Assembly (NCBI RefSeq): GCF_051903065.1
Contig: NZ_CP178438.1
DNA length: 64,000 bases
Reading direction: 5' to 3' (one strand)
Source of the DNA: Escherichia coli
GTDB taxonomy: Bacteria > Pseudomonadota > Gammaproteobacteria > Enterobacterales > Enterobacteriaceae
The notes beneath the pieces are model-generated. The model was not told the DNA's origin and made no database searches. It was given only the letters and a program-made list of their open reading frames with translations. Below are positions 59,703-60,016 of this stretch, in pieces. Positions within the stretch are counted from its first letter, which is position 1; each line of letters opens with the position of its first letter. Position numbers and translations under genes: made by a program.

Positions 59703-59798
59703 ATGCTGGGTAATATGAATGTTTTTATGGCAGTACTGGGAATAATTTTATTTTCTGGTTTTCTGGCAGCGTATTTCAGCCACAAATGGGATGACTAA
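59703..59798 (+). CDS. mgtS: Small membrane protein MgtS (YneM), 31 aa
   Basis: Hand-translated ORF MLGNMNVFMAVLGIILFSGFLAAYFSHKWDD with stop at 59796-59798; below the ORF-track length cutoff. Confidence 0.8.
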   Translation: MLGNMNVFMAVLGIILFSGFLAAYFSHKWDD

Positions 59799-59825
59799 TG
59801 AACGGAGATAATCCCTCACCTAACC

Positions 59826-59865
59826 GGCCCCTTGTTACAGTTGTGTACAAGGGGCCTGATTTTTA
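59826..59865 (+). terminator. Rho-independent terminator of mgtS
   Basis: Perfect 10-bp stem ggccccttgt/acaaggggcc followed by tgattttta. Confidence 0.6.
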
Positions 59866-59873
59866 TGACGGCG

Positions 59874-59972
59874 AAAAAAAACCGCCAGTAAACCGGCGGT
59901 GAATGCTTGCATGGATAGATTTGTGTTTTGCTTTTACGCTAACAGGCATTTTCCTGCACTGATAACGGATCG
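59874..59972 (-). ncRNA. mgrR: Candidate PhoP-regulated sRNA MgrR
   Basis: Minus-strand terminator (stem accgcc/ggcggt, then an 8-nt U-run at 59874-59881); lies between mgtS and dgcZ, where MgrR is known to sit; the 5' end is estimated. Confidence 0.5.
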
Positions 59973-60016
59973 TTGACACAGTAGCATCAGTTTTCTCAAT
60001 GAATGTTAAACGGAGC

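Follow-up and report, generated by a model that had tools for sequence, protein, structure and literature searches.

The mgtS-mgtT and mgrR low-magnesium locus in an Escherichia coli genome: two convergent small transcription units, each with its own terminator

Genes and features of the locus

The window analysed here is a stretch of 64,000 nucleotides from an Escherichia coli genome. Near its end, between ydeE and dgcZ, lies what is almost certainly the known E. coli mgtS-mgtT/mgrR low-Mg2+ locus, made of two convergent transcription units. The alignment of K-12 MG1655 with positions 59577-60030 contains no gaps and only 5 single-nucleotide differences over 454 nt, so that the coordinates of the K-12 features can be transferred to the window. 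The annotated order in K-12 is ydeE (+), mgtS (= yneM; b4599, +), mgtT (b4775, +), the ncRNA gene mgrR (b4698, -) and dgcZ (-), and the window shares with this ydeE-dgcZ interval its genes, their order and strands, and the neighbours. The features are as follows, with the basis of each.

59602-59618, + strand: candidate PhoP box of mgtS, AATTCA-GCCTT-CGTTTA (read from the sequence, and conservation)
59628-59636, + strand: extended -10 element of mgtS, TGcTAATAT (TG-n-TAnTAT block conserved in the alignment)
59650-59703, + strand: leader ORF of 17 codons, MKIKVSEETHHTINGGK, whose TAA overlaps the mgtS ATG
59692-59696, + strand: Shine-Dalgarno sequence of mgtS, GGAGG (read from the sequence)
59703-59798, + strand: mgtS coding sequence, 31 amino acids plus stop (K-12 annotation, identity, HMMs and codon signature)
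59798-59902, + strand: mgtT coding sequence, 34 amino acids plus stop (K-12 b4775); its ATG overlaps the mgtS TAA (TAATGA)
59826-59864, + strand: intrinsic terminator of mgtS, consisting of a stem, TGA and a T run at 59860-59864 (fold, Term-seq and covariation)
59874-59900, - strand: intrinsic terminator of MgrR, with the hairpin at 59900-59881 and eight U at 59881-59874 (scan, Term-seq and conservation)
59874-59971, - strand: MgrR sRNA, 98 nt (K-12 ncRNA b4698 through the gapless alignment, Rfam and fold)
59904-59917, - strand: target-pairing region of MgrR, U55-A68, UAUCCAUGCAAGCA (region named in PMC6239178)
59920-59935, - strand: putative A-rich (ARN)-type motif for the Hfq distal face, AAAAGCAAAACACAAA (motif described in PMC6239178)
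59937-59967, - strand: 5' stem-loop of MgrR, nt 5-35 (fold and retention across loci)
59978-59986, - strand: extended -10 element of mgrR, TGcTACTGT, its last T 7 nt 5' of the annotated start
59996-60012, - strand: candidate PhoP box of mgrR, CGTTTA-ACATT-CATTGA, at -41 to -25 (conservation)
60018-60023, - strand: putative extra half-site AGTTTA in an 11-bp register, overlapping the dgcZ stop codon (60019-60017)
60017-60907, - strand: dgcZ (K-12 annotation mapped through the alignment)

Five substitutions, all harmless, separate the two sequences in this alignment. Two are synonymous changes in mgtS (GCA for GCC, both Ala codons), one lies far upstream at 59597, and the sole change within MgrR is at +4 (59968), a C in the window and a U in K-12; the target-pairing seed, the terminators and the PhoP boxes are untouched. 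A megablast search of the complete E. coli genomes, 5,426 in all, found positions 59580-60020 in 5,416; in 5,407 the match covers no less than 80% of the stretch, and in one genome it is 100% identical; the records listed carry annotation for mgtS, mgtT and dgcZ. The locus is thus already known: the K-12 and RefSeq annotations include mgtS, mgtT and mgrR, and all three have been the subject of experimental work for more than ten years. As a finding it matters little, because the genes are annotated and long studied and the five changes relative to K-12 are without harm.

The first-pass annotation, made without tools from the letters, had proposed a 31-residue MgtS ORF followed by a terminator with a 10-bp stem, a hairpin with an 8-nt U run on the opposite strand, and a minus-strand transcript of about 100 nt corresponding to MgrR. 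The alignment to K-12 that it had named as a check places the annotated mgtS and mgrR exactly on both features. All its elements lie at or within 2 nt of the positions it gave; only its outer limit, 59973, is off by 2 nt, the MgrR start being at 59971. Its inventory was right for mgtS and mgrR and missed mgtT (59798-59902) and the leader ORF (59650-59703). A tool-free reading of a sequence can therefore recognise a small-protein gene below the usual ORF threshold together with an sRNA.

Comparison with other genomes was based on an exact DNA scan of species-representative genomes with a 20-mer from the MgrR seed, which gave 98 loci (L003-L100) from about 17 genera of Enterobacteriaceae. Because the loci were collected through an exact match of 20 nt in the seed, its invariance among them follows from the way in which the set was built. 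MgrR regions of 94 loci were aligned, 93 loci served for the promoter and the 5' hairpin, and 39 have a canonical mgtS beside mgrR. This adjacency was called by tblastn over the whole loci, a regular expression for MgtS-like ORFs having under-called it. The gene mgtS adjoins mgrR in Escherichia, Salmonella, Citrobacter, Kosakonia, Phytobacter, Pluralibacter and Yokenella, and in a divergent form in Kluyvera; among the loci collected, tblastn did not find mgtS beside mgrR in Enterobacter, Klebsiella, Raoultella, Lelliottia, Leclercia or Trabulsiella.

The mgtS gene and its leader

The ORF at 59703-59798 (+) translates to MLGNMNVFMAVLGIILFSGFLAAYFSHKWDD, identical to K-12 MgtS at 31 of 31 residues. 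It passes the NCBIfam equivalog model NF033842 (80.6 bits, cut-off 35) and the Pfam model PF22865 (88.2 bits, cut-off 27), the match spanning the full length of the protein (1-31 of 31). Across the 39 loci, entropy by codon position is 0.24/0.11/0.92 and synonymous differences outnumber non-synonymous ones by 324 to 91. Thus, mgtS evolves as a protein-coding sequence, with a strong coding signature. Inner-membrane location and stabilisation of MgtA have been published for the identical K-12 protein. The GGAG block 5' of the mgtS ATG is conserved in the alignment of 35 distinct enterobacterial loci.

The 17-codon leader ORF that ends on the mgtS start codon is identical to 'CDS58' of the PIRT-Seq study (supplementary file 5), where it is reported as translated (PMC12350097). 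It is present in E. coli-type loci only.

Promoters and candidate PhoP boxes

In PhoP-activated promoters such as those of mgtA, phoP and mgrB, a (T/G)GTTTA-N5-(T/G)GTTTA box takes the place of the -35 element. The mgtS and mgrR promoters have in common with this regulon a direct repeat in an 11-bp register lying just 5' of an extended -10 element, with a spacer of 12 nt, and the layout of one mirrors that of the other. Each of the two boxes consists of one consensus and one degenerate half-site, the degenerate one being the promoter-proximal CATTGA at mgrR and the distal AATTCA at mgtS.

At mgrR, the GTTTA that the first-pass annotation had noticed upstream of the sRNA start (60011-60007, -) forms the core of a conserved PhoP-box half-site, 36-40 nt 5' of the start, and the whole box (60012-59996) falls inside the interval 59975-60015 where a search for one had been suggested. 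In the 94 aligned sequences, this GTTTA core shows at least 90% conservation or is invariant, and in the extended -10 (TGnTAnnnT) the G, T, A and final T are invariant. The pattern xGTT[TG]A-N5-N6-12 nt-TAnnnT fits 88 of the 93 promoters. Half-site 1 occurs as CGTTTA (56), TGTTTA (23) and GGTTTA (6), and half-site 2 as CATTGA (25), CGTTGA (13), TATTGA (11) and others. Escherichia mgrR adds a putative third half-site further upstream, on the dgcZ stop codon; in the 94-sequence alignment its (A)GTTT(A/T) form is seen in Escherichia loci only. The repeat AGTTTA-AGCTC-CGTTTA (60023-60007), considered as the mgrR PhoP box, was dropped, the alignment placing the conserved box one repeat downstream.

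At mgtS, the distal half-site AATTCA is weak and the proximal CGTTTA matches the consensus. The ATTCA and GTTTA blocks are both conserved in the 35 distinct loci, as is the 12-nt spacer to the -10 element. Transcription would start at about 59643, judging from the extended -10, and PhoQP-dependent activity of an mgtS promoter reporter has been published (PMC11429745). From the motif and its conservation, we infer that PhoP contacts the boxes named here at both promoters. In the window, the exact repeat GTTTA-N6-GTTTA occurs 3 times (0.12 expected); a degenerate PhoP pattern allowing 2 mismatches occurs 29 times against 20.2 expected, which is not significant.

Two unidirectional terminators

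The stem proposed behind mgtS is indeed a perfect 10-bp inverted repeat (59826-59835/59847-59856), followed by TGATTTTTAT. The hairpin folds with 13 pairs at -25.3 kcal/mol (z = -3.69; 1 of 200 shuffles as good). The promoter and terminator scan passed over it because the perfect repeat leaves a loop of 11 nt and the scan allows 8. A plus-strand 3' end mapped by Term-seq in K-12 at 1622804 corresponds to window position 59861, the second T of the run (Adams et al. 2021, PMC7815308, supplementary file 1). Nine of the 10 pairs of the stem remain paired in 39 of 39 loci, with compensatory changes at several of them. In E. coli, a spacer of 3 nt (UGA) and only 5 U follow the stem; in most other genera a run of 6-8 U adjoins the stem. 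This T run was read from the alignment, since whole-segment minimum free energy folds did not serve.

On the minus strand, the hairpin at 59900-59881 that the first-pass annotation had noted has 8 pairs, 6 of them G-C, and a loop of 4 nt, and runs into eight consecutive U (59881-59874); the stem is closed by the first U of this run. A U tail of this length would offer Hfq its proximal-face site. The minus-strand 3' end at 1622824 of K-12 corresponds to 59881, the first U of the run (PMC7815308, supplementary file 1), and is thereby 7 nt short of the annotated MgrR end. Its Term-seq score, 2,434,090, compares with 2,596 for the mgtS end and is the highest among the entries listed for the locus (PMC7815308). 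Across the 94 sequences, the stem and the U run are either invariant or conserved at 90% or more; RNAalifold predicted 7 consensus pairs, each formed in at least 92 of the 94, and one of them covaries between AU and GC in 24. Run on the MAFFT alignment, RNAalifold gave the terminator only, because indels scramble the 5' hairpin.

Since Term-seq 3' ends fall at both hairpins, both are terminators in vivo according to the K-12 data, and the sequence at both ends is identical in K-12 and in the window. For each hairpin, a U run is found on one of the strands and not on the other, which means that these are two unidirectional terminators and not a single bidirectional element. The 3' ends of the mgtS and MgrR RNAs lie about 12-20 nt apart and do not overlap, and the spacer between the two terminators ranges from about 8 to about 50 nt among the 39 loci.

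mgtT

The ORF that starts on the mgtS stop codon encodes a protein identical to K-12 MgtT at 34 of 34 residues, and passes the Pfam model PF23498 over its full length (96.3 bits, cut-off 27). MgtT was discovered through ribosome profiling, and tagging confirmed it (10.1101/511675). The gene is induced by PhoQP within the mgtS-mgtT operon; the protein is not located in the membrane and neither deletion nor overexpression gave a phenotype (PMC11429745). Translation of mgtT is coupled to the mgtS stop.

For specialists, the point of interest in this locus is the layout of mgtT, an ORF that holds the main mgtS terminator and overlaps the MgrR terminator in antisense. The whole of the mgtS terminator sits inside the ORF, and the last nine codons (EKKPPVNRR) are the antisense of the MgrR terminator. 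The main mRNA 3' end, 59861, falls at about codon 22. Most transcripts would hence carry a truncated mgtT that lacks a stop codon, and full-length MgtT needs read-through of the terminator. Some read-through and full-length translation do take place, as follows from the detection of the C-terminally tagged protein (10.1101/511675).

Although the start codon is invariant, conservation at the protein level is absent outside Escherichia among the 39 loci. The ATG is present in 39 of 39, yet the ORF that it opens has as few as 7 codons in some and as many as 83 in others. A 34-codon ORF that stops at this same TGA is confined to Escherichia-type sequences: the window, one locus each of E. albertii (L004) and E. 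coli (L020), and a contig labelled Caldithrix (L008) that is identical to E. coli at this locus. E. whittamii matches mgtT only in two frames. Over codons 2-10 in the 39 loci, there is no codon periodicity (entropy 0.73/0.77/0.88) and the ratio of synonymous to non-synonymous differences is 59:118, which is no coding signature, against the 324:91 of mgtS. With the frame changes, a conserved full-length mgtT ORF under selection at the protein level was not found outside Escherichia in these 39 loci. The finding concerns the age and function of the gene, and not whether the ORF of the window is E. coli mgtT. This is a crude test, as the loci are interrelated and indels are present in their alignment.

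On balance, we lean towards the view that mgtT is translated in E. coli and yet is not a conserved protein-coding gene, being instead a lineage-specific by-product of re-initiation at TAATG, in a region whose conservation comes from the two terminators. Besides the variable length and the missing coding signature, this would account for the origin of the C-terminal half in the T run, a length-variable spacer and the antisense of the MgrR terminator, for the lack of phenotype and of membrane location (PMC11429745), and for the position of the main mRNA 3' end within the ORF. A Pfam family for MgtT does exist, however, and the score against it is high; the ATG is invariant; the N-terminus, MNGDNPxPNRPL, is recognisably similar across genera; the tagged protein was detected; and the interrelated loci and the indels in precisely this part of the alignment weaken the comparison. 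From the sequences, the conservation past the mgtS stop would be best explained by the terminators, and MgtT looks like a young or incidental product.

Another idea, which we consider a long shot, is that the feature conserved at the mgtS stop is translation into the terminator rather than the MgtT peptide. Re-initiating ribosomes would cover the 5' arm of the hairpin and could tune termination against read-through. It was suggested by the combination of an ATG invariant in all 39 loci with an ORF end that may lie anywhere from just before the hairpin to well past the MgrR terminator. As the read-through RNA is antisense to the MgrR terminator, such tuning would, if real, tie the two PhoP-induced genes together. 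Most transcripts end at 59861, and on these the ribosomes would instead reach a 3' end without a stop codon.

The MgrR sRNA

An Rfam scan of the whole window returned a single match, RF01407 (STnc560, Hfq-binding RNA), on the minus strand at 60005-59792, with 281.9 bits for a gathering score of 55 (E = 1.8e-64). STnc560 is a Salmonella name, which we take to designate MgrR. The match is full-length, and the consensus structure of the model contains both the 5' stem-loop and the terminator of MgrR. The model has 214 positions, more than twice the 98 nt of MgrR, and takes in promoter sequence on its upstream side and, downstream, the complement of the mgtS terminator.

Matched end to end (1-214), with the complement of the mgtS hairpin included, the model could be taken to mean that the minus-strand RNA is mainly about 214 nt long (60005-59792), reading past the MgrR terminator and running antisense to the 3' end of mgtS-mgtT. 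This is very improbable. The model begins 34 nt 5' of the annotated start, within the promoter (-10 at 59986-59978); a strong terminator with eight U stands at 59900-59874, where the Term-seq score exceeds that of the mgtS end as given above; the second hairpin has no U run on the minus strand; and the RNA is 98 nt long in the K-12 annotation and in the literature (PMC6239178). With one end inside the mgrR promoter and the other at the mgtS stop codon, the model does not have the limits of a transcript. The 98-nt MgrR at 59874-59971, for which the first-pass annotation had estimated about 100 nt, is retained.

The MgrR sequence folds at -25.9 kcal/mol (z = -2.89), and none of 200 shuffles was as good. 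The predicted fold consists of a 5' stem-loop, a long unpaired stretch comprising the A-rich and seed regions, and the terminator, and agrees with the published probing data and description, namely 98 nt, an (ARN)5-like motif and pairing through U55-A68 (PMC6239178). The limits given here for the A-rich motif are our own reading of the sequence. The 5' stem-loop varies in sequence between genera and the hairpin is kept: when each sequence of the 93 loci (83 distinct 50-mers) was folded and compared with its shuffles, the median z was -2.39 and 90% were below -1.

The seed is identical to that of K-12 and is unpaired in the minimum free energy fold. In a run limited to nt 41-70 of MgrR, the best predicted duplex with K-12 eptB joins MgrR 54-69 to positions -8 to +9, across the AUG, at -17.6 kcal/mol. 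Shuffled targets give -13.1 +/- 2.7 kcal/mol and 32 of 500 are as good, a statistic that is weak when taken alone. The position of this predicted duplex would fit translational repression. With full-length MgrR, the eptB duplex is uninformative, at -40.9 kcal/mol against a shuffle mean of -41.2.

A convergent response to low Mg2+

We set aside the reading in which the 31-codon ORF and the hairpins arose by chance in intergenic DNA that lacks small genes, for instance as part of a REP-like or bidirectional terminator element lying between ydeE and dgcZ. Short ORFs and terminator-like hairpins are common, and the generic terminator scan alone was not significant (2 terminator-like sites against 1.1 expected), but this reading is already refuted by HMM and covariance-model scores far over their thresholds, by the coding signature in mgtS, by the covariation in the hairpins, by the U run on one strand only of each, and by the published detection of both protein and RNA.

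For K-12, convergent PhoPQ-dependent transcription, the binding and stabilisation of MgtA by MgtS with a rise in intracellular Mg2+, and the repression of eptB and ygdQ by MgrR with Hfq are established. The sequence elements needed for this mechanism are all present, intact and conserved in the window. The proposed course of events would then be the following. At low Mg2+, the sensor PhoQ would phosphorylate PhoP, which would bind the direct-repeat boxes in the -35 region of both promoters and turn both genes on. MgtS, a single-helix inner-membrane protein of 31 residues, would bind the Mg2+ importer MgtA and raise its level, thereby increasing intracellular Mg2+. MgrR, 98 nt long and Hfq-dependent, would pair through its single-stranded U55-A68 region with targets such as eptB across the start codon, and the repression of these targets would change the modification of LPS. 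Each unit would end at its own intrinsic terminator and, in Escherichia, mgtT would run past that of mgtS into the antisense of that of MgrR. To this scheme the present analysis contributes the identities and positions of the parts, their structures, conservation and covariation; the K-12 literature supplies the dependence on PhoQP, the stabilisation of MgtA, the repression of eptB and the 3' ends in vivo.

This arrangement is reminiscent of dual-function RNAs of the SgrS/SgrT type, in which a small protein and a base-pairing RNA likewise answer one signal and one physiological problem. In SgrS/SgrT a single RNA has both activities, whereas mgtS and mgrR are separate, convergent transcripts; MgtSR fusions are synthetic (10.1101/2021.06.30.450655).

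Transcript ends in mgtT and MgrR

The intrinsic terminator of mgtS sits inside the annotated mgtT ORF (59798-59902, +). The main published RNA 3' end, at position 59861, corresponds to about codon 22 of the 34 codons of mgtT (PMC7815308). Because this end lies within the ORF, the majority of transcripts carry mgtT without its stop codon, and synthesis of full-length MgtT requires read-through into the antisense of the MgrR terminator. On the opposite strand, the Term-seq 3' end of the small RNA MgrR falls at 59881, on the U that opens the 8-U run (PMC7815308) and 7 nt before the annotated end at 59874. 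This gap could be due to trimming, to a homopolymer mapping effect or to real heterogeneity.

The mgtS leader

Two elements were located upstream of mgtS:

59650-59703, + strand: leader ORF of 17 codons, MKIKVSEETHHTINGGK, whose TAA overlaps the mgtS ATG
59659-59672, + strand: conserved block of the mgtS 5' UTR, AAGGTAAGCGAGG, with the Shine-Dalgarno sequence following about 30 nt downstream

The leader ORF, mgtS and mgtT are thus three ORFs chained through TAATG junctions. The first of them is identical to the PIRT-Seq 'CDS58' (PMC12350097) and is found in E. coli-type loci only; the AAGGTAAGCGAGG block is kept in most of the 35 distinct enterobacterial loci.

PhoP-box-like repeats and half-sites

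Exact GTTTA-N6-GTTTA repeats occur three times in the window, versus 0.12 expected. The following elements were recorded:

23414-23429, + strand: further exact GTTTA-N6-GTTTA repeat
24417-24432, - strand: further exact GTTTA-N6-GTTTA repeat, TGTTTAGTCACGGTTTA
60017-60023, - strand: additional AGTTTA half-site that keeps 11-bp register with the PhoP box of mgrR and overlaps the dgcZ stop codon

The first two lie on either side of a fimA-like major-subunit gene belonging to a chaperone-usher fimbrial operon that adjoins hipA. Since TGTTTAGTCACGGTTTA is placed about 275 nt upstream of this gene and on the same strand, it is a candidate PhoP box. The extra half-site near mgrR was seen in Escherichia loci only.

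mgrR and mgtS in other genomes

In the genome scan, mgrR was found without an adjoining mgtS in Enterobacter, Klebsiella, Raoultella, Lelliottia, Leclercia and Trabulsiella. In K. michiganensis, mgtS is about 6 kb from mgrR. Kluyvera carries an MgtS-like ORF, 61% identical, which ends only a few tens of nucleotides from the MgrR seed. The loci behind this comparison include L005, L025, L029, L021, L051 and L026, among others, and L061 at 9572-9664.

On a contig labelled 'Caldithrix sp. MAG' (L008), mgtS, mgtT and the interval between mgtS and mgrR match E. coli exactly. An mgtS-mgrR locus of enterobacterial type is found on a contig labelled 'Chryseobacterium sp. 18061' (L067). Both cases probably reflect contamination or mislabelling of public assemblies.

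In Enterobacteriaceae bacterium RIT691, mgrR is present twice, at sites separated by 1.6 kb:

L014, 1396-1570: mgrR copy
L014, 2990-3164: mgrR copy

By alignment, the copy adjoining mgtS lacks the PhoP box and the -10 element present at the other.
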